A stretch of DNA of 32,587 nucleotides from Spirochaetales bacterium (GCA_022771185.1 JALFCJ010000236.1:1-32587), one strand, 5' to 3'. Shown: positions 4,142 to 32,587, counted from the first letter of the stretch. Numbers and translations are program-made. The notes: generated by a model not told the origin, from the sequence alone.

Positions 4142-4174
4142 ACGAGAAGAAGAAAAGCATTATGGTAAAGACAT

Positions 4175-4246
4175 GGGTCTATAGCTTAATGGACAAAGCG
4201 TATCCCTCCGGAGGATAATATCCGGGTTCGATTCCCAGTGGACCTA
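4175..4246 (+). tRNA. tRNA-Arg (anticodon CCG)
   Basis: Manual cloverleaf: acceptor GGGTCTA/TGGACCT (two G-U pairs), D arm GCTT-AATGGACA-AAGC, anticodon arm TATCC-CTCCGGA-GGATA (CCG at 4208-4210, with U33 and a purine at position 37), 4-nt variable loop, T arm CCGGG-TTCGATT-CCCAG (one C-A mismatch), discriminator A. No CCA is encoded. Confidence 0.9.
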
Positions 4247-4514
4247 TATTAGCCAGGCTTTGAGAAGCCAAGTTCCGTTTTACAAACGAATCTTTAATGC
4301 ACATACTGTCTCAGGTGCAATCTTTAACTTATTTGGTGACAAAAGAATAATTGTCATTTATGTTTCTTACAAGTTTTGGGCTATAAAACAGTAGAGCATA
4401 ATTTTCTTTTTTTTATCACTTTTTGGATCTAATACTCATTAATAGAGGTAAAGAAAGCAAGAATGACAAAAAGAAATACTACACGCCAAATTGTCTACAA
4501 CTCTGTCCCCTTTC

Positions 4515-6468: not shown

Positions 6469-8558
6469 ATCTCCTTGATCTTCATATTACAGAAAGCCCT
6501 TCTTCCTCCGGAAAACTCTCCATATCCAACCATTCCGTATTTATATTCATCGTCTTTTACTGTCAACTGCTTCTCATTATCGACGGAAAGAGTAATTTCG
6601 TCTCCAATTACAGATAAAGTAAGACCATATTCTCTTCCATATTCCCAATTGGCTTTTTTATGAGCAATTACTGTTTTCTTTCCATGTCTCTTCTTTATTA
6701 TTGAGAAACCATCTTCGTCTATTCCCCCATAATACCCACGCCGAGCACCTTGGATTCTAGCACCAACTAAATGACTTTCTCCTCTATATGGAACAACTCC
6801 GCCCTCTACTGTCACATCAGAGGTAAAGTAGTTTCCTGTATAAGCTTCAGCTCCGCTGAGGCTCATTTCCTCCATTCTTCCATCTACAATTTCCCATGCA
6901 CCATGATCATGGCTGAAAGGTAAGACTGATGCAAACTCTTTCGTAGAACGAGAGAAGTCTATAGAGTATTCGCTCTTTCCGCTAATGGAGAATGAGGAGA
7001 TGTAAAGTACTCCGAAGTCTCTGAATTTAGAAGGACTGTTGGACTCCAGAACTATTCCCACCTCCTCAGGGAAAGAACCATTTAATTGAGGAACAGTAAA
7101 TGAAATAGTGTGCCAGTCTTCATCTTTATATATTGATCCACCTAGATATATGATCTCTTTTGTAAAAGTATCTTTTACATATGGAGATATAATCATACCT
7201 TCTCCATTAAAGCGCTCAAAACGGAAAGTAATCTCTACATTTTCTCCAGGATATACTGTAGGCGAGAACACAGGCATATATCTTTCATCATCAAAGTCCT
7301 CACGTCTCCAAAAGCTCTTATAGTAGATTCTGCTTTTCTGCCCTCTTACCATTCTGTCAAAAAGAATTTCCAAAGCTCCGCTGGAATCAACACCTTTTCC
7401 CTCTACATGGTGCATTTTCGTTAGAATACTATCGGAGAGTCTCAAACCATGTGTACTTCCTGGTAGGGAAAAATCAAAGGAGGGATGCCTTTCGTCTATA
7501 TTTAGATTATCAGAAGGAATAATACCCATATTTATCATGGCAAAAGCAGTCAACTTCTTTGCATATGTAGGGATATCGAGGACATTGAGATATCCTGAGA
7601 CTCCAGAAAGCACGATCATATCGTTAATGGGTGCCCTATATCCCTCTCCTAAGCCATCCAATCCATCCATTACGCCAAGTATAGTCCCCACATTTCCTGC
7701 GTTGCAGTCAGTATCCCAGCCAGCCATGGTTGCGATTTCTATGCCCCGCTTAAAGTGTCTTCCATATAATAGCGACATCACTACGACACCGGCATTTGGA
7801 ATAATGTGACAAACACCTTTATATTTATCATAACCCCACTCACTCTGAAGCATACTGAGACAGGCTCTCCAAGAATCAGGGTTTTCTTTATGAAATGATA
7901 TTACCGCCTCTGCAACCTTTTTATATATTGAACCATCAGATACAAAAGAAAGAGCTACATCAACTATTCTTTCTATATCATTTGAAACAAAGGCTTCAGC
8001 TATTGCAGCAGATACAAATGCAGCTCCTTCAAGCCCCTCCCCATCATGGGACACGGAGGCCGCTATCTTTGCACTCTCTGCAGCAGCCTTTGGATTTCCA
8101 GGATTAATTAAGCCCCAAGTATCAACAAAAATCTGACCTCCGATCTGCTCGGATAATACTTTTCCATTGGTTATTTCAGATCCGGAAAGAGGAGCCGGAA
8201 CACCATTCTTCAGATTCAGATATGCTGTGTGTTCAGTGCTTACACCATATCCTCCCCACCAGAACATTCCTATTCCTTCCCTGGCATAATTAAGCCAAGC
8301 TTCTGCAACATCACCAGCTGTAAGAGGCACACCTTCTTCTTTATCATCTAGAGAACGAAGAAAGAATACGGGTCCGTTTGCATCATCGTCGGCGGCAAAA
8401 TTTCTAAAAGGTTTGACATATGAAGTAATGTCACCATAAAACCTTTCAATTCTTTCACTACTCCAGACTGTAGGTTCCACGGGAGCACCCAACCTTATTC
8501 CGGCGTTCATGCCAATAAACCCAGCATATATTCTTTCCAATACTTCTCTTTCTTTCAT
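6465..8558 (-). CDS. ADP-ribosylglycohydrolase-family domain fused to about 340 aa of C-terminal beta-rich modules
   Basis: 697-aa ORF. The N-terminal ~350 aa are ARH-like (GFIGMNAGIRLGAPVE, DDDANG, GWDTDCNAGNVGTILG). The C-terminal half is rich in beta-strand-like segments and ends in GMVGYGEFSGGRRAFCNMKI, which resembles lectin/glucanase-type or DUF1080-like folds. The fold assignment is not verified. Confidence 0.7.
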   Translation of the reverse strand: MKEREVLERIYAGFIGMNAGIRLGAPVEPTVWSSERIERFYGDITSYVKPFRNFAADDDANGPVFFLRSLDDKEEGVPLTAGDVAEAWLNYAREGIGMFWWGGYGVSTEHTAYLNLKNGVPAPLSGSEITNGKVLSEQIGGQIFVDTWGLINPGNPKAAAESAKIAASVSHDGEGLEGAAFVSAAIAEAFVSNDIERIVDVALSFVSDGSIYKKVAEAVISFHKENPDSWRACLSMLQSEWGYDKYKGVCHIIPNAGVVVMSLLYGRHFKRGIEIATMAGWDTDCNAGNVGTILGVMDGLDGLGEGYRAPINDMIVLSGVSGYLNVLDIPTYAKKLTAFAMINMGIIPSDNLNIDERHPSFDFSLPGSTHGLRLSDSILTKMHHVEGKGVDSSGALEILFDRMVRGQKSRIYYKSFWRREDFDDERYMPVFSPTVYPGENVEITFRFERFNGEGMIISPYVKDTFTKEIIYLGGSIYKDEDWHTISFTVPQLNGSFPEEVGIVLESNSPSKFRDFGVLYISSFSISGKSEYSIDFSRSTKEFASVLPFSHDHGAWEIVDGRMEEMSLSGAEAYTGNYFTSDVTVEGGVVPYRGESHLVGARIQGARRGYYGGIDEDGFSIIKKRHGKKTVIAHKKANWEYGREYGLTLSVIGDEITLSVDNEKQLTVKDDEYKYGMVGYGEFSGGRRAFCNMKIKEM

Positions 8559-15553: not shown

Positions 15554-16711
15554 TCAAACAACCTTAATAAGGGATCCGACAGTAGATGCCAATGATCCGA
15601 CAACTACTATTATTTGGAAAGGAAGAGTGCCGAAGAAAGAGCAAATCGGACTACCTCCAGTCCTCTTTCTAGAAATATGATAAGCAAGAATGACACCTAG
15701 GCCTGTTATGACCTGGATGACTCCTGCAATTCTAGTAAACCCTACAAAGCCCTCCAACCCTAAAAGAGCCAAAATAAGACAAGGAAGGGTGGCTAGGATC
15801 CAGCTCTTCTTTCTTGAGAGACCTGTCTTTTCCGATACTATATCCCTTAAATTCAGTGAATTGGCCCAGAAAGAAGTTGAAAGAGCAAGAAGAGAGAATA
15901 TATATCCGACTACTCCTACCCAGCCCCCGAGTTTTCTCGAGAGATCAACCAAGGCTCCGTCCTGAGTAATTGAGCTGCCGCTGCCAATAAGGGTCATGAA
16001 AGTAATGACGACAATAAGTACGACGTTAAGCCCTGTTCCTGCAGCAATGGAACTCTTTATTTTCTTTGGATCTCCATGGAAACCCTTTACTACTTGAGGT
16101 ACGCTCATTACAGCAGATAAAGCAAAGGCGACCATTCCATAAAGAGCAAGAATATTTGATGGGGCTACAAAATGGGAAGGAAGAGATTCTTTGTCCCCAG
16201 TCATGACCGAAATGAAAAGAATCAATACGACCACCACCATTGAAAACACAGATATCTTCTCGCATATCCCCACCGCCTTCATTCCTGCATATACCACCAC
16301 GGAACAAAGAGCAAAATATAACAATTGGGAAAACCACACAGGAAGGCCAAACCACGAAGAAAACACCGCGCCTCCACCACTTATGAATCCAGCGATATTC
16401 ACAAGTACAGAGAAGCCCATGATGGCGAAAGCACCCCAAGAAAGATACTTTCCTACCTTCCCTTTAAAGAGTTCATTCTCGAATATTGTAATAAATTGGC
16501 CTCCTCCATTATTGAGGCTCAATTCTGCTATCATATAGTGGAGAACTAGATTCACTAGGTATGCTGCAACAATAATGAACACAAAACTCTGCCAGCTGTT
16601 TCTCGACGCTAAATATGGGACAGCCAATACGCCAGAGCCTACTCCATGACCGACTATTATGCCCGCACCTTCCCAAAAAGTAAGAGAAGCTTCAGATTTT
16701 ACTTTATTCAT
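15554..16711 (-). CDS. Amino-acid permease (aromatic amino acid / Trp-Tyr permease-like family)
   Basis: Polytopic membrane protein of about 11 predicted TM helices, starting FWEGAGIIVGHGVGSGVLAVPYLA. I prefer the ATG at 16711, which is preceded by GGGGAGAG. The track ORF start at 16819 adds 36 non-membrane residues and overlaps the divergent gene. Confidence 0.65.
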   Translation of the reverse strand: MNKVKSEASLTFWEGAGIIVGHGVGSGVLAVPYLASRNSWQSFVFIIVAAYLVNLVLHYMIAELSLNNGGGQFITIFENELFKGKVGKYLSWGAFAIMGFSVLVNIAGFISGGGAVFSSWFGLPVWFSQLLYFALCSVVVYAGMKAVGICEKISVFSMVVVVLILFISVMTGDKESLPSHFVAPSNILALYGMVAFALSAVMSVPQVVKGFHGDPKKIKSSIAAGTGLNVVLIVVITFMTLIGSGSSITQDGALVDLSRKLGGWVGVVGYIFSLLALSTSFWANSLNLRDIVSEKTGLSRKKSWILATLPCLILALLGLEGFVGFTRIAGVIQVITGLGVILAYHISRKRTGGSPICSFFGTLPFQIIVVVGSLASTVGSLIKVV

Positions 16712-16772
16712 ACACCTATTCTCTCCCCTTAACTCTTTCCCTGCAAGGCTAAATAGAGTTACCTTTTGGATT

Positions 16773-17921
16773 ATGAAACGAAAACCTATAATCATCTTTG
16801 GCTTTTTGGTATTTGCCATTCTTTTGGCTTTATTCTCTTTTGATGTTTTCGATACTTCTCAAAAGACTTCCTTTACTCAGTTCATAAGCTTAGTGAATGA
16901 AGGGAAAGTCGAATCCATATCCATCCAAGGAGAAGTGTTAAAAGTAAAAAGTGAAGGAAAGACCCTCTCTGTTCCAAACCCTGACTATCCTACTTTCAAA
17001 AGGGATATGATGGAGAAAGGAATAAGGGTATCTGATGATACAACAACTCTGGACGACATATTAAACTCCCTCTTTAACGTCCTGTTCCTTGCTCTATTTA
17101 TCTTTGCTCTATATAAAGCGCTCTATTGGTATTCTTCCACTTTCAAGATAGTAAGACACACAGGGATTCATTTCTCCGATATCGCGGGAATGGATGAAGT
17201 GAAGAGAGATATGGAAAACATCGTAAAAGAGATGAAGAGCCCTGATGAAAATAGCAAAAGAGTTAAAGGAATTATTCTTGAGGGACCTCCAGGAAACGGA
17301 AAGACTCTCTTTGCAAGGGCACTGGCAGAAGAATCAGGTGTAAACTTCATAGCCACAAAAGGTGCAGATTTCCAAGGCGCCGTCATGGGACTGGGTGCAA
17401 TGAAAGTAAAGATGCTCTTCAAAAAAGCAAGAAGCAAGAAACCTTGCATCGTGTTCATAGATGAATTCGACTCAATAGGCGAAAAGAGAAACTATGCTGG
17501 AAGCGGTATTGATAAAGAAAACAATAGAATACTCACAACTCTTTTAAATGAAATGGATGGTTTTAGCGGGGACAAAGGGGTAATGGTTGTAGCAGCAACA
17601 AACTCATTCCAATCTCTGGATCCAGCTCTAATAAGACCAGGCAGATTTGATCTGAAGTACACTATTTCAAATCCCGACCAGAAGACACGAATGGAGCTTT
17701 TGGCAATCTATGGAAAGGGAAAGACCTTCTCTTCAGATCTTACTCCCCAGATTCTCTCCACCATCTTTGACGGACTCTCTTCAGCAGCTATCGAAAGCGT
17801 TATTAATCAAGCGGAAGAAATAAGAAGAAGTTACAATAAAGAAACGATAACTATTGAATGTATCGTCGCTTCTGCTTCCAAGTGCAGAGAAAAGCTAAAT
17901 ATAAAAATAAAGAAGAATTAG
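16773..17921 (+). CDS. Membrane-anchored FtsH-like AAA+ ATPase without an M41 protease domain
   Basis: Two TM segments flank an FtsH_ext-like segment. It has Walker A GPPGNGKT, Walker B IVFIDEFD, and the second region of homology ATNSFQSLDPALIRPGRFD. The protein ends about 130 aa after the AAA core with no HEXXH motif. I prefer the ATG at 16773 (MKRKPIIIFGF...) over the track start at 16659. Confidence 0.75.
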   Translation: MKRKPIIIFGFLVFAILLALFSFDVFDTSQKTSFTQFISLVNEGKVESISIQGEVLKVKSEGKTLSVPNPDYPTFKRDMMEKGIRVSDDTTTLDDILNSLFNVLFLALFIFALYKALYWYSSTFKIVRHTGIHFSDIAGMDEVKRDMENIVKEMKSPDENSKRVKGIILEGPPGNGKTLFARALAEESGVNFIATKGADFQGAVMGLGAMKVKMLFKKARSKKPCIVFIDEFDSIGEKRNYAGSGIDKENNRILTTLLNEMDGFSGDKGVMVVAATNSFQSLDPALIRPGRFDLKYTISNPDQKTRMELLAIYGKGKTFSSDLTPQILSTIFDGLSSAAIESVINQAEEIRRSYNKETITIECIVASASKCREKLNIKIKKN

Positions 17922-18042: not shown

Positions 18043-18050
18043 TTTTATTA
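18043..18050. repeat. Candidate 8-bp target-site duplication (left copy) of the IS66 element
   Basis: TTTTATTA directly abuts G18051, the first nt of the IS. It is identical to 22523-22530. Both flanks are AT-rich, so a chance match is possible. Confidence 0.45.
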
Positions 18051-18051
18051 G

Positions 18052-19931
18052 GTCGAGTAGACAGATGCATTGCGTAGCCTCCAGTGCCAAGCAAATGCAT
18101 CCACCCCTCACAGAACCGTACGTGCGCTACTAACGCATACGGCTCTTCATTTTAATCTTTTGTTGTTACCAAAGCTTTACATATACTTTAGGACTCACGA
18201 TGGGCGTCTGTTTCATGAAGATATTGAACTTTTCCCAATTTATCCTCTTCTTTTGTCCTCTACGTCTTAAGACTCTATATAGCGTTTTGATGCAGTAGTT
18301 TCTAAATGAACTGAGACTTTTTGTATTTCCACTTACACCGTAATAATGATAGTGACCAAGCAGTTTAACATTTAGCTTAGTTACAATGTCCGAGATAGGA
18401 CAATGCATCACACTATATAACCATTCTTTTATGGCTTGCCTTTTAGCTTTCATCTTCTTTTTACTGGAAAGAACTACTACAACGTAAAAGCTTTTATGGA
18501 CCATTCCATTGTGAAAAGAAAAACCAAGGAATTCAAATGATTCTTTTGAACCACTACCTTTACCAAAAGGTAATATTCTAGTTTTGTCTTCAGCAATCTC
18601 AAGACCAAATTTTGCAAGTCTCTTTGGCAGTACAGCGTAAAATGCTTTGGCATCCTCTTCATACTGAAAGCATGCTAGAAAGTCGTCTGCATATCTAATG
18701 ATATAGGCTTCACCTTTTACATGTTTCTTTACCACCTTCTCAAACCATAGGTCGAGGACGTAATGAAGATAAACATTTGCAATATAAGGACTTATTAATC
18801 CCCCCTGTGGAGCGCCTAGAGTACTTTCCTGCATTATACCTTTATCCATTATTCCGGCTTTGAGAAATCTAATGATGTATCTGATAAGGTTTTCATCAGC
18901 AATATCGTTTCTAAGAAACTTTATTATCCATTCATGATTCATATTGTCGAAGAACCCTTTTATATCTGCTTCAACAACCCAACCTATAGGACGTTTATAA
19001 ATAATATCTCTAATGGTTTTGATTGCATCATGAGCACTTCTATCAGGTCTAAAACCATATGAACAATCCAGAAATCTTGGTTCATATACACCATTCAGCA
19101 CTTTTGCAAGCACACCTTGAACAAGCTTGTCTTCATATGACGGTATTCCTAAAGGACGAAGCTTTCCATTAGCCTTGGGAATGTATACTCTTTTGACCGC
19201 TTGCGGTCTATAAGAGAATGTTTTCATTCGTTTAAGCAAATTATCAAGATTTGCATCAAGGTTCCTGTTGTATTCATCTTTGGTAACACAATCGACTCCA
19301 ACAGCCTTGTTTCTGAGTTGTAGTTTATGCTCTTTCTCGAGATTCACTTTATTGACGTAGTGAATTAACGTCTGAAGCTTATCATGCTTCTTTGACAACA
19401 ACATTATTTCCTTTTCGTAATTTTCCACAATTTACGGAGCCTCCAGTACTCCATGTGTCCACTCTAAGGAACCGACTAAAATGTGTCTCCCTTCGCTCCG
19501 CTGTGTTTCCACAGTTTCATCACTACTATGAAGACATCCGACTACTTACATTTGCGTCCTGAATCTTGCTTTTACACTTGTATCCAGTCGTTCTGCTCAC
19601 TTTGAGCCAGATAAAAATGTAAGTCCTCCCAGGTATGACATACACACCTTGCACACTCGCCACGCTCTACGACCCCGATGAGTTCTCAACAGTCATCGCC
19701 TTTATCGATTGTTTCTTGCTGTCTGCTGCCCGGTTAAACGCATCGACACTCATACGATAATTTCACGAGGCTCAATCGCATTCAGGTTTCCCTTGCGGCT
19801 CTTGTGCTTTCCTGCCTACGCTTAAACCTAATCTCACGACTTCGGCTCCAAGGCTGGATACTGACTGCTGGCTGGGCTTTGTCAGGTTGGGAGTTTCACC
19901 CAACTATGTGTATGACACCGAACTGGCGCAC
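18052..19931 (-). mobile_element. Bacterial group II intron (about 1880 nt) with an intron-encoded reverse transcriptase/maturase
   Basis: On the minus strand the 5' end reads GTGCGCC (19931 downward). Domain V, GAGCCGTATGCGTTAGTAGCGCACGTACGGTTC, lies at 18145-18113. A domain VI helix (GATGCATT/AATGCATC plus an outer extension) has a bulged A at 18058, 6 nt before a GAC 3' end at 18052. The RT ORF sits in domain IV. The 3' boundary comes from manual folding and from reconstitution of the IS66 terminus. Confidence 0.85.
18166..19428 (-). CDS. Group II intron reverse transcriptase/maturase (no endonuclease domain)
   Basis: 420-aa ORF with RT motifs RPLGIPSYEDKLVQ, GFRP, GAPQGGLISP and the catalytic YADDF, plus a maturase X-like C-terminus. 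It ends without an HNH/En Cys-rich domain. Confidence 0.95.
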   Translation of the reverse strand: MENYEKEIMLLSKKHDKLQTLIHYVNKVNLEKEHKLQLRNKAVGVDCVTKDEYNRNLDANLDNLLKRMKTFSYRPQAVKRVYIPKANGKLRPLGIPSYEDKLVQGVLAKVLNGVYEPRFLDCSYGFRPDRSAHDAIKTIRDIIYKRPIGWVVEADIKGFFDNMNHEWIIKFLRNDIADENLIRYIIRFLKAGIMDKGIMQESTLGAPQGGLISPYIANVYLHYVLDLWFEKVVKKHVKGEAYIIRYADDFLACFQYEEDAKAFYAVLPKRLAKFGLEIAEDKTRILPFGKGSGSKESFEFLGFSFHNGMVHKSFYVVVVLSSKKKMKAKRQAIKEWLYSVMHCPISDIVTKLNVKLLGHYHYYGVSGNTKSLSSFRNYCIKTLYRVLRRRGQKKRINWEKFNIFMKQTPIVSPKVYVKLW

Positions 19932-19948
19932 TAACCGTCAAATAAAAG
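19932..19948 (+). repeat. IS66 left terminal inverted repeat (nt 2-18; nt 1 is separated from it by the intron)
   Basis: TAACCGTCAAATAAAAG compared with the right end, read inward, TAAGCGTCAAATGAAAG. Confidence 0.75.
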
Positions 19949-20003
19949 CCTAAGGCCATTCCATCAATCATTGAGTAACATAAGCTCATGAACATATGGA
20001 GGC

Positions 20004-20336
20004 ATGGTTATGGAATCATCAGTATCACCAAAGAACCGTTTATCAACATCAGAAAAGAGTAATTATGTATCTCAGTGGAAAGCATCTGGACTATCACAGA
20101 AGCAGTTCTGTAGGAATATGGGTATCAGCCCTACAACCTTTTCTGGATGGATTCATCAATTATCAGCAATAGAGAATAGGAAAGAAGTGCATTCGATCCC
20201 TTTTATTAAAGTAGAGAGTAAAACACCTTCTTTTCTGGAACATTCAATTACCATGGAATATCACGGAGCAAGAATTAACCTTCCTCAATCATTATTGCCA
20301 AAGGTTATTAAAGAACTCTCAAAGGTTAACGGCTGA
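20004..20336 (+). CDS. tnpA: IS66-family accessory protein TnpA (Orf1-like, HTH)
   Basis: 110-aa ORF. SGLSQKQFCRNMGISPTTFSGWIHQL is an HTH followed by the short beta-rich tail usual for IS66 Orf1. It starts 72 nt inside the left IR. Confidence 0.7.
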   Translation: MVMESSVSPKNRLSTSEKSNYVSQWKASGLSQKQFCRNMGISPTTFSGWIHQLSAIENRKEVHSIPFIKVESKTPSFLEHSITMEYHGARINLPQSLLPKVIKELSKVNG

Positions 20337-22026
20337 AGCCAGTGAGAATGTAATCTCCTATCCTCTCTTCATCAGGCCTAGCTTCTCTTATGGCTTTATC
20401 ATAGAAATCAAGTCTAGAGAGATCTGCATTCCAGGGAAGAAGAGAATCATAATCTTTCTCTTCTGTTGTTGGACCAAACCTGAGTACAAACTCCATGTAT
20501 CTCTCAGCATTAAGTCCACACTCTTTTGCGCTCATTAATAGAGAATAGAAGAAACAAGATGCATCAGCACCATCAATTGACTTGCAGAAAAGCCAGTTGT
20601 GTCTTCCTACGGCAATGCGCCTTGCTGCATTCTCACACACATTGTTATCTGGTGTTAGCTCTACATAATCAAGATAGACATAAAGGTTATCTTTATAGAA
20701 GCGCAGGTAATCCAATCCTTTCTGCAACTCTGCTGAGGTGACAAGCTTGCCAAACTCCTTATCTACCATCTCAAAAATGGAATCAATAATAGGCTTTGTC
20801 ATCTTCTTTCTCTTATCAATGAACTCTTCTGCTGAAATCTCTCCCTTATGAAGCTCCTTCCTGCAGTTCTTATCAATTGTGTATAACTGGGAATGAAGAT
20901 TCAACAGCTTGAATACCTTCATGTCTTTCTTGTTGAGTCTGGCATAGTTCTTGAAGTGCCTTACTGCATGTGTCCAGCAAACAGCATGCCTCTTTTGGTA
21001 GATTCTATTATCATCCATGTACCCTTTGAGCCCATCGGTCAATAATGGTCCATTGAAGCAGGCCTTCTTGAATCCATCAAAAAGGCATTCTCTCGTTCTT
21101 CCTATGCTGTAAAAGTAATTGATTACTCTCCGGTACACTCTTTTCTCTTCATCAAAGGTCGTCCCAACTCTTATCAGTACAAATGAATTAGAACTGGTCC
21201 TTCCACTTTCACTTTTTACATCCAACACTTCAATCGGCGTCTCATCTTGATTGAGAACTCTCATCTTGAATACTTGTTCTCTAAAGTACCTGTCAAAACC
21301 TGTCAGTTCTCCGTAATAGGTAATAAGCCAATTACTCATCGTTTGCCTTGAAAGATTAAGCCCTTGCTCTTTGCATGTCTCAGAATATCTATAGAGAGGA
21401 CAGCTGTTGTAGTATTTCTGGAATACAATATTCGCAACCATAGATGCATCACAGCTAAGAGCATCTGTCTTTGCATTATTGAATCCTACTATCTTTTTTT
21501 CTTCTGTCCCTTCTACCTCAACATCCGTTACCCATGTTGGATAGATTGCTTTAACAAGCCTTCTTTCAGAGGGCCTATAACAAAGCTTTAAAACAACTTC
21601 GTCTTCCCCTCTCTTGTAAACAATACCATCCTTTTCAATTGTTTCTGGTGCATCTGTTGTATAATCATCTGTGAAGATTGGGGTGTTAGCAGGGAATACC
21701 ATCCCTATTGTTCTTTTCTTTCTTGTTTTCTCTTCTTTTGCAGCAGAAGATTCTTCCGCTTTCCCTTCTGTTACTTCTTCTGCATATTTAATGATTGCTT
21801 CCAATTCAGGAAAGAGAAGCTGAACAGCTTCTGTAGAAGGTAAATAGTTCTTGGCATTTGCCAGTCTTCTCAACTCCTCAATATTTGCAATTATTCCTTC
21901 CAATTCTTTTACCTTGTTAAGAAGTACTACATTATCGTTATAGAGTGAGTAAACAACATCCTTCAGCATTGGTTTATCCATGCTTTCTACACTCTCTCTT
22001 GTAATGCTTATTTTCTTCTCACTCAT
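20326..22026 (-). CDS. tnpC: IS66-family DDE transposase TnpC
   Basis: 566-aa ORF with an N-terminal coiled coil, DDE_Tnp_IS66-like motifs LNQDETPIEVL, LLTDGLKGY and CWTHAVRHF, and a C-terminal LLPWN. Confidence 0.9.
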   Translation of the reverse strand: MSEKKISITRESVESMDKPMLKDVVYSLYNDNVVLLNKVKELEGIIANIEELRRLANAKNYLPSTEAVQLLFPELEAIIKYAEEVTEGKAEESSAAKEEKTRKKRTIGMVFPANTPIFTDDYTTDAPETIEKDGIVYKRGEDEVVLKLCYRPSERRLVKAIYPTWVTDVEVEGTEEKKIVGFNNAKTDALSCDASMVANIVFQKYYNSCPLYRYSETCKEQGLNLSRQTMSNWLITYYGELTGFDRYFREQVFKMRVLNQDETPIEVLDVKSESGRTSSNSFVLIRVGTTFDEEKRVYRRVINYFYSIGRTRECLFDGFKKACFNGPLLTDGLKGYMDDNRIYQKRHAVCWTHAVRHFKNYARLNKKDMKVFKLLNLHSQLYTIDKNCRKELHKGEISAEEFIDKRKKMTKPIIDSIFEMVDKEFGKLVTSAELQKGLDYLRFYKDNLYVYLDYVELTPDNNVCENAARRIAVGRHNWLFCKSIDGADASCFFYSLLMSAKECGLNAERYMEFVLRFGPTTEEKDYDSLLPWNADLSRLDFYDKAIREARPDEERIGDYILTGFSR

Positions 22027-22108
22027 GGAATTAAATATATCACAATTGGCTATTTAATTCAATATATTACAATAAATTAGTCTCTAAAAAACAAAGAAAT
22101 TAACTCCC

Positions 22109-22441
22109 TTAAAAGTGCGGAAACCTCCTCCACGGATCTCCTCCTTTTAGCATCTCTATTATCTCTTCCCAACTAGCTTCTATTTTTTCTTCTGTATCGT
22201 TTGGCCACTTGAAACCTAAACCGCAATTAAGTCTTTTCGATATCTCTAACCATCCATTTCCATCCCATGCTATTGCTGTTACCCTTCTATGATTCTTTCC
22301 ACAGAAGATAAAGATGCTTTTATCTTGCGGATTAAGATTCATTTCACTTCTTACCATCAATGATAGTGTTTCGGCTCTCTTCCTCATGTCTGTTACGCCT
22401 GGCTTGATGTAGATGCTATATGACTCTAGATTAATTTCCAT
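22109..22441 (-). CDS. tnpB: IS66-family accessory protein TnpB (Orf2)
   Basis: 110-aa ORF with IYIKPGVTDMRK, IFIFCGKNHRRVTAIAWDGNGW and SKRLNCGLGFKWP, as in IS66 Orf2. It starts 80 nt inside the right IR. Confidence 0.9.
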   Translation of the reverse strand: MEINLESYSIYIKPGVTDMRKRAETLSLMVRSEMNLNPQDKSIFIFCGKNHRRVTAIAWDGNGWLEISKRLNCGLGFKWPNDTEEKIEASWEEIIEMLKGGDPWRRFPHF

Positions 22442-22503
22442 CCCTTTGTAGTTCTCCTATCCTCATGAAGGAGTCTACTACTTTAGCTATTTTCAATTTG
22501 GAA

Positions 22504-22521
22504 CTTTCATTTGACGCTTAC
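22504..22521 (-). repeat. IS66 right terminal inverted repeat
   Basis: The plus strand reads CTTTCATTTGACGCTTAC; the reverse complement is GTAAGCGTCAAATGAAAG. Confidence 0.75.
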
Positions 22522-22522
22522 A

Positions 22523-22530
22523 TTTTATTA
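22523..22530. repeat. Candidate 8-bp target-site duplication (right copy)
   Basis: TTTTATTA is identical to 18043-18050. It is separated from the IS terminal C22521 by one A. Confidence 0.4.
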
Positions 22531-22538
22531 TCGTATGA

Positions 22539-25500
22539 CTATGAAAACAGCTTGTATATAGCAGATGTTATTTTTTCCTTGCGCTTAAGCTTTTTTCTTT
22601 TTGTTTCCAGGGTATTCTTCAGGCCATTAGGCGTTTCATCCCCAAAGAATTCGTTTAGTTTTTCTGAAATACTATCAATCTCTGTGGTTTTTTTGGAAGA
22701 TTCTATCTCAAGAATTGTTTTCTGTTCTATTTCCCTAGACAGTGTTTTCTTGTATCTAAGACAATCCTCTAGACATTCTGAAACACCTTCAATAAATGCA
22801 TATTCTGAAATCGACTTTGTGATTTTATTAATTTCTGGAATTGTCTTGGCTGCCTTAACTGAAAGAATAGTATTGTTGAGTATCCGCTTTACCGCATTAA
22901 GAAAAGCTTCATCAAATATTTGTTTGTTTTCTGAATAGTAATCACACAATTGCCGACAAGCTTCGTCTTTTATTTCTATGCATCTTTGAATAGATGATGC
23001 AAGTAGGAGAGCTTCAATATAATTATTTTGGTATTGAAAATAAATATCGTTAATCTTTATCTCACATTCAGAGAATAAACTTTTGTATTCTGGTATGTCT
23101 AAGCATTCTTCTGCTATTTTGAGAATTTCAGAGCATTCATCCACAGACTCAGCTTTTTGAAGTTTCATTCGCAGAGATGGCAGATTACTGATTTTTATTT
23201 TTATTTGCTCTTCTTTCTTTTTAAGTTCCTGTTGTTTCTTTCGACAATCGGTGAAAAAGTCTTCGTATTCTGGTATGCCAATACAGTTTTCTGTCTTTCG
23301 CAGGAGTAATGAGCATGATCTTGAAGAGCATGCCATCTCTATTTGTCTGAACAATGAAGGAAGTTCACTGATTCTTTCCTCAATCCTTTTATTATTAATA
23401 TCCTTTAAAAGAATGGAAAGGGCATTTACTAATCTATGTTTTTCTTTCTCTTCTTTGCATTTCTGCAAAAATAATTGATTACAGATTTCCACATGTTTTT
23501 TTGCATCCGAATATGATAGTAGTTGTGAAAACTTTTGTGCTGCGATTAGATAATCTGTGCTACTCTTCGCATTTGTTTCACAGATTATTGCTTCCTGGTA
23601 TTGTATTGATTTTATCTTTGATAGATATAGCTGAATAAGTTCTGCGGTGTTAGGGTAATCAATTATTTCTGATAATGTTTCTATGATGTCATAGATTTGG
23701 CTAATAGAAAGCTTTTTATCTATCTGATTCTCTAGTCTCAAGTAATGATATTCCTGGATTTCAGAGTAATTGCTTATGATATCCATGTATATGGCATTGA
23801 GATAATTATCTAAACATCCTCCCCATTCCCCTAGGAAATTAGAGATTTCTTCTTCCAATTTCTGGATCTTTGGCTTTATTGATGTAATTGGAGAAAGAAA
23901 ACTTATTTGTAAACTATCAATAATCTTTTCAATTGATTTATAGTTTTTTCTTAAATCAAGACATAAATCGAGAATCTTAATGTAATGGCTAATATCTACA
24001 CCTTGTAATGGTCCAACTATTTTCAGCTGGTTTTTACAATCGTAGAAACATGATAGATCCTTTTCTAGCAAAGAAGAGGGAAAATTGCAGAAGAACTTAT
24101 AGATTGGAAAAACTGTTTGAATCATTTCGTATCGTTCTTCAATAGCATTCTTGAGAGATGCCAGCTGATTTGCCCAGAGAGTCCATGAAGTCTCACTTAA
24201 ATCTGATAGTCTTTGTAGTAGTAGAGAAAGATAATGAGGATTTATATCATTCAACAATCTATGCGGAAAGTTGTCCTTAATGAAATAACACAAGTCAGAG
24301 TTTGAAATATTAGATGAATCCAAGGTTTTCAGTCTGATGTTATTTAGTGAAGAGACCTTGCTCTTTATTTCAAGTACAACACTATAGTCATTAATGTATT
24401 GAATTGCATCTCTAAAGCAAGTCTGCACTTCAGGTAATATATTATATTGTGCAAAACTAGGCATGTTGTCTTTGAGCAAGATGTCTATTGCTTTTGAAGA
24501 GACTACGTTAGAATCGAATTTATAGTCCATTTTTGTTATGGTTCTGAATCTAGTAATGAATTGATTTAGAAAGCTATAAGCTTTTTCTGTACACTGAGGG
24601 CATACTTGTGGTTTACCATCTTCTAAAAGACTCTTCTTTTCAACATATTTATTACCACAACAAATACAATCTACATTGATATTATCTTTACAATTTTCGC
24701 ATATTTTTTCATTTTCAGATGCAGAAAAGAACTCTTCTCCGCAACGACGGCATTTATGATTATATAGTTTCTTGCCAAGTACCATATCTTTTGTACATAT
24801 GGGTAGTCCTTTATTTATTGTGAATGGTATTTGAGATTTACAAAACAGACATTCGTGTATTTTACCTTTCTCAAACCAATATGGATAAGATGTTGGCAAC
24901 AATTGTCCAAAACTTGATCCTTGTTTCGATAGAAATGAAAAGTCGTCCATGTAGCGACTGAAAGCAGAAACCCATTCCTTTAGGTTTGGTCTATTTCGCC
25001 TATTATTGTCAAATGATGTAAAAGCCCTGACAAAGAGTCTTCTTATATATACAGGAAGATTCCCCCAAATATACATGGACGGCCCAATAGGAACGGAATC
25101 CTGCACAGTACCATCTATATTGTAAGAAAAGAAGTATTTCTGTTCTTTTTCTTCGTTTTCGGGAAGTTCCCTATGATTAAAATAGTTGATATCGAGAAAC
25201 AGAATCTTAAAAAAAAGAGCTGCTGCAGAAAATCTTTCTCCATAGATATCTCTGAGAAAGTTATTAAACTTCCTGCCTTCCCACTCTGGAGGTGTTAAAT
25301 CCGGTGTTCCTACAGGACAAGGAAACTCATCAATTTGGAAGCTATCGACGTCTACTATATATACTTTATAATCTTCAGTAATCAAGAAGTTTTCTGGCTT
25401 TAAGTCCCCAACCAATACTTGATGATTTTCTACGTTACTTAGAGAAGAAAGGATTTGTGCTATCTGAAGGCATATGGAAACCAGTTCCTTCCTATTATAA

Positions 25501-25907
25501 GCAGTATTTGTTCTGGTAGAAATGGAAAGAAGGATATCTCCCAATGATACTGTATTTTTTATGTACTCCATTGAGAAGCCTATTATTTCTTCTTTTCTAC
25601 TGTCATAGCACAGTTTTTTAGGTGAACAAATGCACGGGTGAACTTTTGAAAGATCTAGACTCTTTATCAATTCTAATTTCTTCTGCTTTCTCACTGTAAG
25701 GAGTTGATTGAAATCACCATCAACATGATATATTTTTGCAACACTGTTTGTGTCTTCTTTTATCCTATAAATAGTACCCTCTGCACCAGAAGATATCATT
25801 TCACAAAGTGTTAACAGTCTATTGTCTATAGATATATGATTGTCTGATTGGAATGATTTTGATATTGGCACTATGGTATCTGGGATATTTGTAGTTGAAA
25901 AAACCAT
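22539..25907 (-). CDS. Giant Ser/Thr protein kinase-like protein: N-terminal kinase domain, zinc-ribbon cluster and a long helical Cys-rich C-terminal region
   Basis: 1122-aa ORF with a GGGGG RBS. Kinase motifs: SSGAEGTIY (G-loop), VAKIY (K58), VLVGDLKPENF (D168; non-RD), IVDVDSF and TPPEWE. CxxC pairs lie at aa 353-439 (CLFC, CRRC, CENC, CICC, CPQC). About 680 further aa are helical with internal repeats. Confidence 0.85.
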   Translation of the reverse strand: MVFSTTNIPDTIVPISKSFQSDNHISIDNRLLTLCEMISSGAEGTIYRIKEDTNSVAKIYHVDGDFNQLLTVRKQKKLELIKSLDLSKVHPCICSPKKLCYDSRKEEIIGFSMEYIKNTVSLGDILLSISTRTNTAYNRKELVSICLQIAQILSSLSNVENHQVLVGDLKPENFLITEDYKVYIVDVDSFQIDEFPCPVGTPDLTPPEWEGRKFNNFLRDIYGERFSAAALFFKILFLDINYFNHRELPENEEKEQKYFFSYNIDGTVQDSVPIGPSMYIWGNLPVYIRRLFVRAFTSFDNNRRNRPNLKEWVSAFSRYMDDFSFLSKQGSSFGQLLPTSYPYWFEKGKIHECLFCKSQIPFTINKGLPICTKDMVLGKKLYNHKCRRCGEEFFSASENEKICENCKDNINVDCICCGNKYVEKKSLLEDGKPQVCPQCTEKAYSFLNQFITRFRTITKMDYKFDSNVVSSKAIDILLKDNMPSFAQYNILPEVQTCFRDAIQYINDYSVVLEIKSKVSSLNNIRLKTLDSSNISNSDLCYFIKDNFPHRLLNDINPHYLSLLLQRLSDLSETSWTLWANQLASLKNAIEERYEMIQTVFPIYKFFCNFPSSLLEKDLSCFYDCKNQLKIVGPLQGVDISHYIKILDLCLDLRKNYKSIEKIIDSLQISFLSPITSIKPKIQKLEEEISNFLGEWGGCLDNYLNAIYMDIISNYSEIQEYHYLRLENQIDKKLSISQIYDIIETLSEIIDYPNTAELIQLYLSKIKSIQYQEAIICETNAKSSTDYLIAAQKFSQLLSYSDAKKHVEICNQLFLQKCKEEKEKHRLVNALSILLKDINNKRIEERISELPSLFRQIEMACSSRSCSLLLRKTENCIGIPEYEDFFTDCRKKQQELKKKEEQIKIKISNLPSLRMKLQKAESVDECSEILKIAEECLDIPEYKSLFSECEIKINDIYFQYQNNYIEALLLASSIQRCIEIKDEACRQLCDYYSENKQIFDEAFLNAVKRILNNTILSVKAAKTIPEINKITKSISEYAFIEGVSECLEDCLRYKKTLSREIEQKTILEIESSKKTTEIDSISEKLNEFFGDETPNGLKNTLETKRKKLKRKEKITSAIYKLFS

Positions 25908-25947
25908 AGTGTTTGCCCCCGCTTATTAGATTATCACTCTTTACAGT

Positions 25948-25982
25948 ATTATAGGTCATAAATACTTTTTTTGCCCTATAAT
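25948..25982. promoter_or_regulatory. Back-to-back divergent promoters for the kinase gene and the vWA-PP2C pair
   Basis: TATAAT occurs on the minus strand at 25953-25948 and on the plus strand at 25977-25982. The RBSs are GGGGG (kinase) and GAAGGAG (vWA). The -35 boxes are weak or unclear. Confidence 0.4.
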
Positions 25983-26008
25983 ATGAAGATAGTTTTGAAG
26001 GAGTAACA

Positions 26009-26773
26009 ATGCATACTAATCTAGACCAGAGTTTTATTGAATCACTTATTTCTAACCCGACGGACAGAGTACCTGTCTGTTTTTGTCTGGATTCAAGTTA
26101 TTCTATGTGGCAAGTTGTATCAGGTGAAACAACTCCTACGGGGAAAACGACTGAAGAAATTGATGGTGTTGTTTGGAATATAGTTTCTGGAGGTGTTAGT
26201 AGGTATTCCTTAATGTACAAGGGAATCATGGAATTCATTGACATGATAAAGGAGGAGCCAAGAGCACGCGCCTCAGTAGAATTATTTGTTGTTTCTTTTT
26301 CTGACAAAGCAGATTGTGTGGTTAGATGTGCATCTGTCGATAGTTTTTCTTTTCCTGATTTCGAAAAAGGAAGAAATACAAATATCGCTGCAGGCATTAA
26401 TCTTTCTTTAGATATTCTAGAAGAGAGAAAGAGTCAGTATAAACAGGTCGGAGTAAAATACTACCAGCCGATACTGGTTGTTATATCAGACGGAAATAAT
26501 AATGTTGATAATGATGCATACGAGATGGCTAAGAAAAGAATTCATGAATTAGAGAGAAATCGTAAACTGACAACCCTTGTTATATCCTGTGATGAAGATA
26601 GTAATATCAAAGAATTGGACAGCATAAGTTCTTCTGGTGAATCATTGAAGATAACTCACGATAAGATTGAATCATTTTTCTATTGGCTGAGTAGAAGTGT
26701 GTCCAGTTATTCAAAGGGAACGATAGAAAAAGTTACTATGAAGAAGAACAAAACGGAAAAAATTATACTATGA
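26009..26773 (+). CDS. von Willebrand factor A (TerY-like vWA) domain protein
   Basis: 254-aa ORF with MIDAS residues CFCLDSSYSM (DxSxS), GRNTNIAAG (Thr) and LVVISDGNNN (Asp). It has no signal peptide. Confidence 0.85.
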   Translation: MHTNLDQSFIESLISNPTDRVPVCFCLDSSYSMWQVVSGETTPTGKTTEEIDGVVWNIVSGGVSRYSLMYKGIMEFIDMIKEEPRARASVELFVVSFSDKADCVVRCASVDSFSFPDFEKGRNTNIAAGINLSLDILEERKSQYKQVGVKYYQPILVVISDGNNNVDNDAYEMAKKRIHELERNRKLTTLVISCDEDSNIKELDSISSSGESLKITHDKIESFFYWLSRSVSSYSKGTIEKVTMKKNKTEKIIL

Positions 26774-27510
26774 AGAATGTTATTTCTTTATGCAGCTCGC
26801 AAATAGGGAGTGCTCATATAAAGGGAAATATACCTTGCCAGGATTATGCATATACCATTCGAAAGAATGGCTGTAGTTGTATTTCTGTTGCTGATGGTGC
26901 AGGATCTGCGAAAAAAGCAGAAATAGGGGCACGCGTTGTTGCTACTGTTCTGACAAAATATATTGCTTTACACTTTTATCGTATTCATAATCTGGCTAAT
27001 CGTGGTCAAGCTACAAAAGTGCTGGTGGAAGAAGCCCGAAAAGCTATTACAAAGATAATGGCAGAGGGCGACTTGATTGAAGACTATAATACTACTTTTA
27101 TGGCAATAGCAGTAAAAGAAAAACAATGTATTGTCGTACATATTGGTGATGGGCTTACAGGATTTGAAAAAGATGGGAAAGTGGGGATAATTACATATCC
27201 AATGAATGGAGAGTATGCTAATACTACATATTTCATTACAGAGGATAATGCGGAATATATGATGCAGTGTAGATTGGTAGAATTGAAGTCAAAAAGTATT
27301 CGTCTGTTCTGCCTTTCAGATGGTTCAGCTGATCTTTATTATAATTCGGTTTTTGGTCTTCGAAACACTAATTCTCTTGTCTATTGTTTTAAGGAAATCG
27401 AGGAGTGTGAGAATCAGACTGAGAGATTAGGATGTCTGGAAAGATTATTGGGATATATATCTCCAAGGTTTACTGCCGATGATTGTTCCATAAGTGTCAT
27501 GTCGTTGTAA
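26770..27510 (+). CDS. PP2C-family Ser/Thr protein phosphatase (PP2C_2-like)
   Basis: 246-aa ORF with an ATGA overlap with the vWA gene. Motifs: GNIPCQDYAY, ISVADGAGSAKKAEIGARV, VVHIGDG and CLSDGSAD. Confidence 0.8.
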   Translation: MKNVISLCSSQIGSAHIKGNIPCQDYAYTIRKNGCSCISVADGAGSAKKAEIGARVVATVLTKYIALHFYRIHNLANRGQATKVLVEEARKAITKIMAEGDLIEDYNTTFMAIAVKEKQCIVVHIGDGLTGFEKDGKVGIITYPMNGEYANTTYFITEDNAEYMMQCRLVELKSKSIRLFCLSDGSADLYYNSVFGLRNTNSLVYCFKEIEECENQTERLGCLERLLGYISPRFTADDCSISVMSL

Positions 27511-27698
27511 ACATATGGTTTAACGTGACAGATGATATTCTGAAGTAAGCAACATATGTCATTTGAAAAGTTCTTTTTATGAGAAACATACATGGCTTGT
27601 TATGAAGTTGTTCAGTGTCCTTTGCGACTTGAATGACCAGTATCATCAGGTAACATCATTTGAGGATCTTCTGGATAAGATAAGCTAGAGTACAGACC

Positions 27699-27845
27699 CA
27701 AAAGGCCCGTGTTGACAAAACGTTGACAAAATGTTGACTAAACGTTGACAGATTTTGATTCAACTATCATGCAACTATTATGTTGCTGTTTTGAAGCTAT
27801 TTTGTTACTATACAGCAACTAAGTTGAAACAATGAGGGCCTTTTG
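27699..27845. repeat. Perfect 10-bp inverted repeat pair bracketing a 127-bp repeat-rich spacer
   Basis: CAAAAGGCCC at 27699-27708 and GGGCCTTTTG at 27836-27845. Confidence 0.6.
27711..27754 (+). repeat. Four tandem direct repeats with 11-bp period, each containing TTGACA/TTGACT
   Basis: GTTGACAAAAC / GTTGACAAAAT / GTTGACTAAAC / GTTGACAGATT start at 27711, 27722, 27733 and 27744. A second phased pair, CAACTAT, lies at 27761 and 27772. Confidence 0.85.
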
Positions 27846-27915: not shown

Positions 27916-27918
27916 TAG

Positions 27919-27950
27919 TACTCTCTCTTAAACGGGAGAGTATTTTTATT
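27919..27950 (+). terminator. Strong rho-independent terminator in an intergenic region (plus strand only)
   Basis: TACTCTCTC-TTAAAC-GGGAGAGTA (9 bp, one G-U) is followed by TTTTTATT. It lies about 410 nt after the PP2C stop and about 95 nt before the malic enzyme start. Confidence 0.75.
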
Positions 27951-31618: not shown

Positions 31619-31854
31619 TGTAGTACCTCGTGGAAATCAAGATTTTGTTGTTTTTCACTCAGTAATCATCATGCTTCAGTCACCTCTATTTCTGAAAAGA
31701 ATGGTATAGGAAAAAGAATAATGGGTCAATCACTTTTCTTGTGGGGTGAACAAATAGTCTGAGAACAATGGATATAGGTAAAAATTGAAAAAGTAGGGTG
31801 ATTTCCTTAGAGTTTATATAACCAAAACAACTCAGACACAAGGAAAAACCCTAC

Positions 31855-32587
31855 ATGGAGAACACTATCACAATCCCTTCCGGTTTGGAAGGGTTCACCA
31901 ACATCAAAACGACAAGAGCTACCACGATCACGGAGAGAGACATCTTCCTCATTGACGGGACGATGCAGGAATTGGAAGAGGAGAGGACCTGCCCGAATTG
32001 TGGTGCAAGGATGCACATACATGACACGTACGACGTCAGCCTCAGCCACATCCCGTTGGGCAGGACGCTTTCGGCAGTAAGGTTCGAGAAGCACCGGTAC
32101 ATCTGCCCTTGTTGCAAAACGACGGGCATCCAGGGAGTGCCGTTCCAGGCCGCGAGCCATAGGATTACGGTCCCCCTCCATTCATATGCAAGGGACCTGC
32201 TGGAGCTGGGGTTCACAAACAAGTGCGTCTCGGAACTGACGGGGCTGTGCAAGAACACAGTGAAGGCCATAGACAAGGAGCGCCTGCTGGGGAAATACAC
32301 AAAGGACGGCAGGCACCTCAAGGAACCGGAGAGGCAGTCCAGGTATCTCGGCGTCGACGAATTCCTTCTGCACAAGGGGCATGAATACGCGACTATCATA
32401 ATCGACCTGGATACGGGGCACGTCCTATGGCTTGCCTACGGCAAGAAGAAACAGGCGCTCTACGACTTCATAGACTTCGTCGGGGAGGATTGGATGGACG
32501 GGGTGGAAGCGGTGGCGTGCGACATGAACAGCGACTACCAGGATGTTTTTGAGGACAGGTGCCCTCACATACAGGTGGTGTTCGACT
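31855..32587 (+). CDS. ISL3-family transposase, N-terminal 244 aa (runs off the right edge)
   Basis: Hand translation gives MENTITIPSGLEGFTNIK...CPNCGARMHIHD...YICPCCKTTG (zf-ISL3) ...RYLGVDEFLLHKGHEYATIIIDLDTGHVLWLAYGKKKQALYDF...AVACDMNSDYQDVF...VVFD (the start of DDE_Tnp_ISL3). It is not in the ORF track because there is no stop in the window. G+C is much higher than in the flanks. Confidence 0.85.
   Translation, partial: MENTITIPSGLEGFTNIKTTRATTITERDIFLIDGTMQELEEERTCPNCGARMHIHDTYDVSLSHIPLGRTLSAVRFEKHRYICPCCKTTGIQGVPFQAASHRITVPLHSYARDLLELGFTNKCVSELTGLCKNTVKAIDKERLLGKYTKDGRHLKEPERQSRYLGVDEFLLHKGHEYATIIIDLDTGHVLWLAYGKKKQALYDFIDFVGEDWMDGVEAVACDMNSDYQDVFEDRCPHIQVVFD

Follow-up and report, generated by a model that had tools for sequence, protein, structure and literature searches.

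A mobile kinase-vWA-PP2C cassette of the yegI/pphC/yegL family in a Spirochaetales bacterium, with an orphan helical kinase tail in place of a PIN-like domain

The sequence analyzed here, 32,587 nt from a Spirochaetales bacterium (GCA_022771185.1 JALFCJ010000236.1:1-32587; this whole stretch is referred to as the window), carries a compact cassette in which a Ser/Thr kinase gene stands divergent to a gene pair encoding a vWA protein and a PP2C phosphatase. The three genes form a self-contained, horizontally mobile phospho-signaling unit of the yegI/pphC/yegL family, within the TerY-P class. The family is already known, and nothing in the cassette points to a categorically new mechanism; what is novel is a PIN-less, divergent form whose kinase bears an orphan, repeat-bearing helical tail. 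Taken together, the observations make it reasonably probable that the cassette is a mobile phospho-switch of the TerY-P class, acting through phosphorylation or its vWA protein, with a role in defense or stress. Its components are as follows.

22543-27534 (both strands): mobile three-gene cassette, delimited by the span of a blastn match and by low G+C
22539-25907, minus strand: kinase gene, YegI family, 1122 aa, from the open reading frame (ORF) listing, Pfam and YegI homology
24918-25823, minus strand: kinase catalytic domain, aa 29-330, from Pfam, AlphaFold 2 (AF2), Foldseek and identity to YegI
24585-24860, minus strand: cysteine-rich zinc-ribbon region, aa 350-441, from CxxC alignment and AF2 beta-hairpins
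22542-24584, minus strand: all-alpha-helical, lineage-specific tail, aa 442-1122, from AF2 and orphan in searches
23043-23408, minus strand: two tandem ~60-aa repeats in the tail, both within aa 834-955, from BLASTP against the relative P0002
25908-26008: divergent intergenic region, 101 bp between opposed start codons
25947-25983: palindrome with back-to-back TATAAT-like boxes (inverted repeat I18)
26009-26773, plus strand: vWA gene, YegL/TerY family, 254 aa, with an intact metal ion-dependent adhesion site (MIDAS)
26770-27510, plus strand: PP2C gene, PphC family, 246 aa, in translational coupling with the vWA gene

Each of the three proteins has a homolog in Escherichia coli, YegI for the kinase, PphC for the phosphatase and YegL for the vWA protein (BLASTP E values of 7e-25, 6e-18 and 3e-17, in that order), which confirms the assignment to the class of vWA, PP2C and Ser/Thr kinase triads that a preliminary description of this DNA had proposed. 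The three ORFs, the 101-bp spacer, the ATGA overlap between the vWA stop codon and the PP2C start codon, the catalytic motifs and the neighboring IS66 element with its group II intron are likewise as given there.

The Pfam Pkinase match of the kinase is marginal (aa 36-248, E 9.4e-8, 32.2 bits, barely over the cut-off of 31.7). Further support comes from a kinase fold that AF2 predicts with confidence and from the homology to YegI, which extends over 299 aa at 28% identity. In the full-length AF2 model, the pLDDT confidence score of the kinase domain is ~90, and a Foldseek search with this model matched PknB (TM-score 0.74) and other kinases (~0.7) through the kinase domain alone. These results bear out the Hanks-type motifs previously noticed in the 1122-aa ORF. 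The protein retains the family-invariant G41, K58 (VAKIY), D168, N173, D186-x-D188-S189-F and PCPVG (196-200), and alignments of 26 and 56 family members show G41, K58, D168, D186, D188, S189, Q191, C197 and G200 to be invariant. With YegI it shares the atypical motifs VAKIYH, GD for HRD, and D-x-D-S-F for DFG: K58 of VAKIYH is equivalent to YegI K39, D168 of VGD (replacing HRD) to YegI D141, and S189 of VDVDSF (in place of DFG) to S162 in the D-S-D-S-F loop of YegI. YegI autophosphorylates, S162 being a residue that receives phosphate, and K39, D141 and S162 are essential in it (bioRxiv 10.1101/819920); each of these residues has its equivalent in the window kinase. At 1122 aa, this kinase is the longest among the family members seen, yet with a family median of ~640 aa it is about 1.75 times, rather than three times, the usual size.

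Behind the catalytic domain lies a zinc-ribbon region with cysteines C353/356, C386/389, C403/406, C414-417 and C436/439. Although Pfam zinc-ribbon models gave no significant match on the window kinase, its cysteine pairs align with the CxxC columns of the family, including the terminal treble-clef unit (zf_Tbcl) of its relatives, and AF2 places beta-hairpins in aa 350-441. An NCBIfam search with the three proteins returned only generic kinase and PP2C matches far under the cut-off.

The vWA protein reaches a Pfam VWA score under the cut-off (E 3.4e-4). It is nevertheless placed firmly in the YegL family, because a profile built from seven vWA proteins finds more than 7900 proteins at E <= 1e-10, many of them named 'uncharacterized protein YegL'. 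The MIDAS residues D28, S30, S32, T124 and D161 are kept, confirming the intact MIDAS attributed earlier to this 254-aa protein, and so is an invariant C-terminal FFxWLSxS...S motif. The 246-aa phosphatase is clear from its PP2C_2 match (E 6.4e-38), and it retains its metal-site residues (D25, D42-GAGS, H124-x-G-D127-G, D184-G and D237-D238), in agreement with the PP2C-like, translationally coupled gene first described. D42 corresponds to D46 of PphC, the catalytic Asp common to both proteins; PphC requires Mn, removes phosphate from YegI and loses its activity through the D46N mutation (bioRxiv 10.1101/303594).

The E. coli K-12 cluster (yegL - pphC(yegK) - [yegJ] - yegI) resembles the window cassette further in the 4-nt overlap of its vWA and PP2C genes. 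It differs in order, since yegL precedes pphC, yegJ lies on the opposite strand and yegI on the same strand as yegL/pphC, whereas the window kinase is divergent. YegI is a 648-aa protein with a two-pass membrane anchor and a C-terminal region named helix-hairpin-helix by the sources, while the window kinase is predicted to be soluble, without such an anchor, and ends in zinc ribbons and a 680-aa helical tail. Relative to YegL, the window vWA protein has an insertion of ~30 aa after the DxSxS motif.

When a trimmed kinase-core alignment was used to scan a collection holding a single genome for each species, 225 relatives were identified, and the 80 best loci among them were retained; these are spread over Spirochaetota, Campylobacterota, Bacillota, Bacteroidota, Planctomycetota, Fibrobacterota, Desulfobacterota, Pseudomonadota, Myxococcota and others. 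Hidden Markov models (HMMs) of the YegL-like vWA and PphC-like PP2C proteins each match 76 of the 80 loci, and three of the partner-less loci are contigs of 3.0-3.8 kb that end near the kinase gene. When neighborhoods of kinase homologs were fetched one by one, adjacent vWA and PP2C genes were found in six of six. Whether the three genes are co-localized in other genomes, a question raised in the preliminary description, is thus answered positively, both partners being present in 76 of the 80 loci. In an all-against-all clustering of ORFs, the kinase family was recovered from 78 loci, the PP2C family from 76 and the vWA family from 69. No other family is broadly conserved; next in frequency come a ~995-aa HerA/FtsK-like ATPase, in 7 loci, and a ~220-aa protein, in 6. 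Since only three gene families are conserved across loci, the triad is an autonomous unit, and the lack of a separate effector gene is its norm.

This result also separates what is peculiar in the window copy from what is not. The order kinase>vWA>PP2C occurs in 55 of 73 loci with a recognizable kinase ORF, most of the others being elaborations of it, and the divergent order of the window recurs in one other locus (L026), which also has a co-directional set. The copy had been considered atypical on both counts: its divergent order is indeed rare, but the missing effector gene is shared with the family at large. Elsewhere in the family, a ~1000-aa HerA/FtsK-like ATPase (matching mad8 and HerA in PADLOC) and a ~220-aa protein follow the triad at L006 12286-15971, with similar genes in L015, L021, L046, L063 and L088; the pair looks like an optional two-gene accessory module.

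Comparison with close relatives provides evidence for mobility. When the window is aligned by blastn to a contig of an Ornithospirochaeta metagenome-assembled genome (MAG; L001), only 22543-27534 matches, at 91-95% identity, corresponding to L001 8370-13719, and in a metagenome contig (L002) the same span alone matches, within that range of identity. The flanks are unrelated in content: L001 has an SDR gene and a MatE fragment at one border and Fic and IstB genes at the opposite border, as against IS66 and a malic enzyme gene in the window. A third copy, 98% identical, occupies a gut metagenome contig of 5.6 kb, the ends of which coincide with the borders of the cassette. No close copy was found in species-level representative genomes, where the best match is 34% identical, and the cassette is therefore accessory. 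Neither terminal repeats delimiting the cassette nor a tRNA/tmRNA att site at its right border were detected, the only tRNA in the window lying at 4174-4247.

Base composition agrees with horizontal acquisition. The cassette has 34.1% G+C compared with 42.0% in the rest of the window, and at third codon positions 28-29% compared with 32-46%, a dip that is genuine but modest. The G+C contrasts reported earlier (~28% in the kinase gene, ~42% in the malic enzyme gene and ~63% in the ISL3 gene) were exaggerated because they were taken from single 60-nt lines: the actual values are 33% for the kinase gene, 47% for the malic enzyme gene and, at the 1-kb scale, ~48% for the ISL3 end of the window, with 62% reached by single 60-nt lines only. 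The foreign appearance of the islet is nonetheless sustained, in that the changed flanks in the relative and the lower G+C indicate that the cassette appears to be horizontally acquired.

All parts of the cassette appear to be maintained. Nei-Gojobori estimates of dN/dS (the ratio of nonsynonymous to synonymous substitution rates) against L001, a single pairwise comparison and indicative only, are 0.14 for the kinase domain, 0.28 for the zinc-ribbon region, 0.275 for the tail and 0.24 for the whole kinase, 0.26 for vWA and 0.16 for PP2C, with a range over all parts of 0.14-0.29. These values indicate purifying selection on all three genes, the orphan tail included. The kinase clusters P0001 and P0002 comprise 54 and 15 member sequences, with intact copies in several independent samples. 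Synonymous divergence (dS) along the cassette relative to L001 (8370-13719) is uneven, at 0.032 for vWA and 0.23-0.25 for the kinase and PP2C, suggesting that the central part of the cassette was replaced in a recent recombination event.

Within the TerY-P class, the cassette occupies a position of its own. According to PMC11090510 and PMC4978471, the class of Anantharaman, Iyer and Aravind (2012) unites a TerY-like vWA protein, a PP2C phosphatase and a Ser/Thr kinase. The window contains a MIDAS-bearing vWA protein, an adjacent PP2C and an adjacent Hanks-type kinase, linked across genomes, and the C-terminal zinc ribbon that follows the kinase in this class is present as well. The window differs from the class in the extra orphan tail of its kinase and in having no ter, McrBC/CoCoNuT, WXG100/FtsK or DNA-processing genes alongside. 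In CoCoNuT types II and III-A, the McrBC-like CnuB/CnuC and CnuH/CnuE genes stand beside the triad, whereas none of these is present among the 25 largest ORFs of the window as judged by Pfam.

The anti-phage TerY-P system of Gao 2020 is likewise a stand-alone three-gene cassette of the same three domain types, but its kinase carries a C-terminal OB fold, as stated in PMC11090510, instead of zinc ribbons and helices. The preliminary description had named this system and proposed a PADLOC run; a scan with PADLOC-DB 2.0 (E value limit 10) matched none of the three proteins to TerY (PDLC02224) or STK_OB (PDLC02223), and the kinase matched generic kinase models only (mad6, PD-T4-6). The window triad is therefore a sister clade and not the validated Gao 2020 system. 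Control scans showed both models to be narrow: even YegL matches TerY no better than E 0.032, and the STK_OB match of a Pseudomonas relative stays at 5.8e-4. Current defense-finder models thus cover a small slice of the triad family. In the literature library searched, no mechanistic study of TerY-P was found.

The most common form of the triad is represented by PIN-kinase-zinc-ribbon proteins, which have in common with the window a kinase core (~30% identical), zinc ribbons and the vWA and PP2C partners. Most relatives carry ~200 aa ahead of the kinase domain, while that of the window protein starts at about residue 29. This N-terminal region matches Pfam PIN_4 in the relatives P0029 (4.7e-9) and P0014 (1.5e-4), and an HMM of the PIN_4-like domain matched 64 of the 80 related loci, whereas six-frame ORFs of the window gave no match to it. 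The domain is fused to the kinase domain in 60 ORFs, and among the other 13 matches some are separate upstream ORFs, such as those just upstream of the kinase at L033 7327-7929 and L075 6859-7308. It keeps conserved acidic D/E/D/D/TxD positions, like PIN nucleases, and is the obvious candidate effector of the majority form (for example, L013-L019 and L027-L030). The window lacks both this domain and the order kinase>vWA>PP2C of the majority form, and about a dozen other loci are also without a PIN-like domain. The real peculiarity of the window kinase is that the PIN-like domain is absent and an orphan helical tail is present instead.

This tail (aa 442-1122) comprises ~680 residues that AF2 models as entirely helical with low to moderate confidence. 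When modeled alone, its mean pLDDT was only 53, and for this reason the model was left out of the fold search. Pfam (E value limit 10) and phmmer searches of the PDB returned nothing credible, and the tail has no known domain or enzymatic signature. When phmmer was run exhaustively over 1.84 billion cluster representatives, the matches were limited to the cluster of the kinase itself, a 107-aa fragment and one weak match (2.5e-4). The kinase also has no transmembrane segment, its maximum Kyte-Doolittle 19-mer score being 1.27. The fragment (P0067; L091 64-387) is a 107-aa ORF on a 529-bp metagenome scaffold that joins the last ~45 kinase residues to an unrelated N-terminus; chimeric assembly may account for it, or else recombination of a piece from the 3' end of the kinase gene.

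The closest relative of the window kinase is P0002, which comes from a Candidatus Ornithospirochaeta MAG. The two proteins are 84% identical but differ in the copy number of a ~60-aa tail repeat, with two copies in the window kinase and four in P0002, where a 122-aa insertion supplies two extra units. Tandem Repeats Finder detected a 180-bp period with 3.1 copies in L001. A motif, h-x-[GDIS]-[YIW]-[KPS]-[DE]...C, occurs three times in the window tail, four times in P0002 and three times in the weak match (P0068), although it was defined after seeing the data, and its shuffle statistic carries little weight. Because the tail is under purifying selection and has neither a transmembrane segment nor an enzymatic signature, it would fit a sensor or scaffold better than an effector.

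These features can be assembled into a tentative mechanism, largely by analogy with YegI and PphC. The kinase would activate itself by autophosphorylating S189 of the D-x-D-S-F loop, and the Mn-dependent PP2C would strip the phosphate from S189, thereby holding the kinase off. The vWA protein is a probable partner or phospho-substrate that reads out this switch, since it is co-translated with PP2C, its MIDAS is intact and its serine-rich C-terminus is invariant; from its co-translation with the phosphatase and its constant linkage, we infer an obligate third partner. Its MIDAS may bind a residue that is acidic or phosphorylated, located either in the kinase or in a target, or alternatively the protein may itself be phosphorylated on the invariant serine-rich C-terminus. 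A trigger might be sensed by the C-terminal part of the kinase, that is, by the zinc ribbons found family-wide and by the helical tail of this lineage; the clade-variable kinase C-termini (OB fold, zinc ribbons, the region named helix-hairpin-helix, and the tail) are likely input modules. As this copy has neither a PIN-like domain nor a linked effector gene, its output would lie in the phosphorylation step as such, with phage or host proteins as targets, or in recruitment by way of the vWA protein.

As for the biological role, defense against mobile elements or stress sensing is most likely, and the case for defense in particular is circumstantial. It leans on four observations. TerY-P triads protect E. 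coli from T7-like phages (Gao 2020, as cited in PMC7699616), and a variant TerY-P protects P. aeruginosa from Autographiviridae, with most cells surviving infection (bioRxiv 10.1101/2022.08.12.503731). TerY-P triads also occur as embedded parts of CoCoNuT type IV restriction systems (PMC11090510). The immediate neighbors of the 80 loci, which are highly heterogeneous (113 Pfam families in 106 proteins), include defense-type genes, namely HerA/mad8-like ATPases (9 of 106), AbiU (3), mad3 (2), Cas6/Csx1, GajB, AriA and DarT-associated NADAR, figures that are raw counts only. Finally, the number of tail repeats varies between close relatives.

Several further points weigh against a mobile phospho-switch with a defense or stress role. 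The triad family is nearly absent from phage genomes (one weak match among 50,697 records) and is found on 52 of 72,556 plasmids; the PADLOC TerY and STK_OB models miss the window proteins; and the loss of the PIN-like domain might mean a loss of output function. The window is a metabolic and transport neighborhood rather than a defense island: elsewhere in it there are genes for transporters and for sugar and nucleoside metabolism, together with a LacI regulator, a truncated FtsH, an ABC-F-like ATPase and transposons, and Pfam scans of its 25 largest ORFs revealed no nuclease, McrBC, ter or other defense gene. The putative substrate role of the vWA protein and sensor role of the tail are drawn from conservation patterns only. 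In addition, the E. coli yegI/pphC genes are chromosomal, with no known phage phenotype and barely detectable expression (bioRxiv 10.1101/819920, 10.1101/303594).

An alternative explanation is a housekeeping or stress-related Ser/Thr kinase-phosphatase pair with a vWA adaptor, which would act on unlinked cellular targets, in the way assumed for E. coli YegI/PphC, and have no part in phage defense. Besides the chromosomal E. coli genes, for which no defense phenotype is reported, such a function would account for the metabolic genes that flank the cassette, the lack of a linked effector gene across the family and the failure of PADLOC defense models to match. It is harder to reconcile with a cassette that is accessory and mobile, as indicated by the different flanks in a close relative, the lower G+C and the adjacent insertion sequence, and that has no copy closer than 34% identity in representative genomes; the very heterogeneous neighbors, with several defense genes among them, and the demonstrated anti-phage activity of related triads also speak against it. 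We regard this explanation as possible but doubtful.

More specific, and on the whole unlikely, is a model in which the tail, with ~60-aa repeats that are gained and lost between close relatives, serves as a fast-evolving receptor for a phage or mobile-element protein whose binding frees the kinase from PP2C control. As the PIN-like domain has been lost and no effector is linked, the kinase itself would then be the effector and halt infection by phosphorylating phage or host targets.

Degeneration offers a very improbable account, in which the cassette has lost its PIN-like effector domain, the triad is inert and the tail is drifting. The absence from the window of a domain present in 64 of 80 related loci, the lack of tail homologs beyond the lineage and the low AF2 confidence in the tail would all be expected of such a remnant. 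On the other hand, the three ORFs are intact with every catalytic and metal-binding residue kept, intact copies recur in several independent samples (54 and 15 members in P0001 and P0002), about a dozen other loci likewise do without the PIN-like domain, and purifying selection on every part, with dN/dS of 0.14-0.29 overall and 0.275 in the tail, argues against a decaying remnant. Least probable of all is a tail that is itself the effector, for example, a membrane-disrupting or polymerizing module freed on phosphorylation, because, even though no other effector is encoded and the closest kinases outside the genus (P0003, P0004) have long helical tails ending in hydrophobic segments, the window tail contains no hydrophobic segment of transmembrane strength (maximum 1.27) and no enzymatic motif or known domain, and a repeat copy number that varies is a trait seen more typically in recognition surfaces.

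Upstream of the vWA gene, a GGAG ribosome-binding site lies 7 nt before the start codon. The divergent spacer contains an imperfect palindrome, TATTATAGGTCATAAA / TTTTTGCCCTATAATA at 25947-25983, with one TATAAT-like box per strand, which could be an operator common to the kinase gene and the vWA-PP2C operon; a promoter scan was overall no better than chance.

To the left, the cassette adjoins an IS66 element that carries a group II intron.

19932-19948 and 22504-22520: inverted repeats of IS66
22109-22441, minus strand: tnpB of IS66
20326-22026, minus strand: tnpC of IS66
18052-19931, minus strand: group II intron, at the very tip of the left inverted repeat of IS66
18166-19428: reverse transcriptase (RT)/maturase ORF of the group II intron

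An 8-bp direct repeat, TTTTATTA, borders the composite of IS66 and intron (18043-22530), with its copies at 18043-18050 and 22523-22530. From this target duplication it follows that IS66 inserted ~9 bp past the stop codon of the kinase gene and left the gene undisrupted. Truncation of the kinase gene by IS66 was considered and is ruled out, as the C-terminus of the kinase aligns to the end of P0002.

Other features of the window lie outside the cassette. An FtsH-like ORF at 16659-17921 (plus strand), with FtsH_ext and AAA domains and without an M41 peptidase domain, ends before the IS66/intron/cassette block and may have been truncated by insertions or rearrangements there. Just outside the right border (27534), at 27711-27750, an 11-bp unit, GTTGACAAAAC, is repeated 3.6 times in tandem. 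This stretch, ~300 bp upstream of the malic enzyme gene, looks like an iteron or operator array, and a terminator-like hairpin follows at 27917-27944. An ORF that runs off the end of the window (31822-32587, plus strand) has CxxC zinc-finger and DDE-type motifs typical of ISL3 transposases and lies in the most G+C-rich part of the window, in agreement with the ISL3 gene of the preliminary description. Two neighboring ADP-ribosylglycohydrolase-family genes (5476-8558, minus strand; 330 aa and 697 aa) belong to a sugar-kinase/ABC-transporter cluster and are unrelated to the triad.

The triad family is very widespread, with 225 relatives in the species-representative scan and more than 7900 YegL-like proteins, and within it the window cassette is near-minimal, consisting of three genes without a PIN-like domain, a membrane anchor or an accessory ATPase. 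As a PIN-less form, it provides a useful contrast to the PIN-bearing majority for separating the sensing from the acting part of these systems, and two close alleles that differ in the number of tail repeats offer a natural comparison. If the tail does act as a receptor, the cassette would represent a minimal sensor-effector kinase with a PP2C reset and a MIDAS adaptor in the form of the vWA protein, and it would open a tractable route to the mechanism of TerY-P-type systems.

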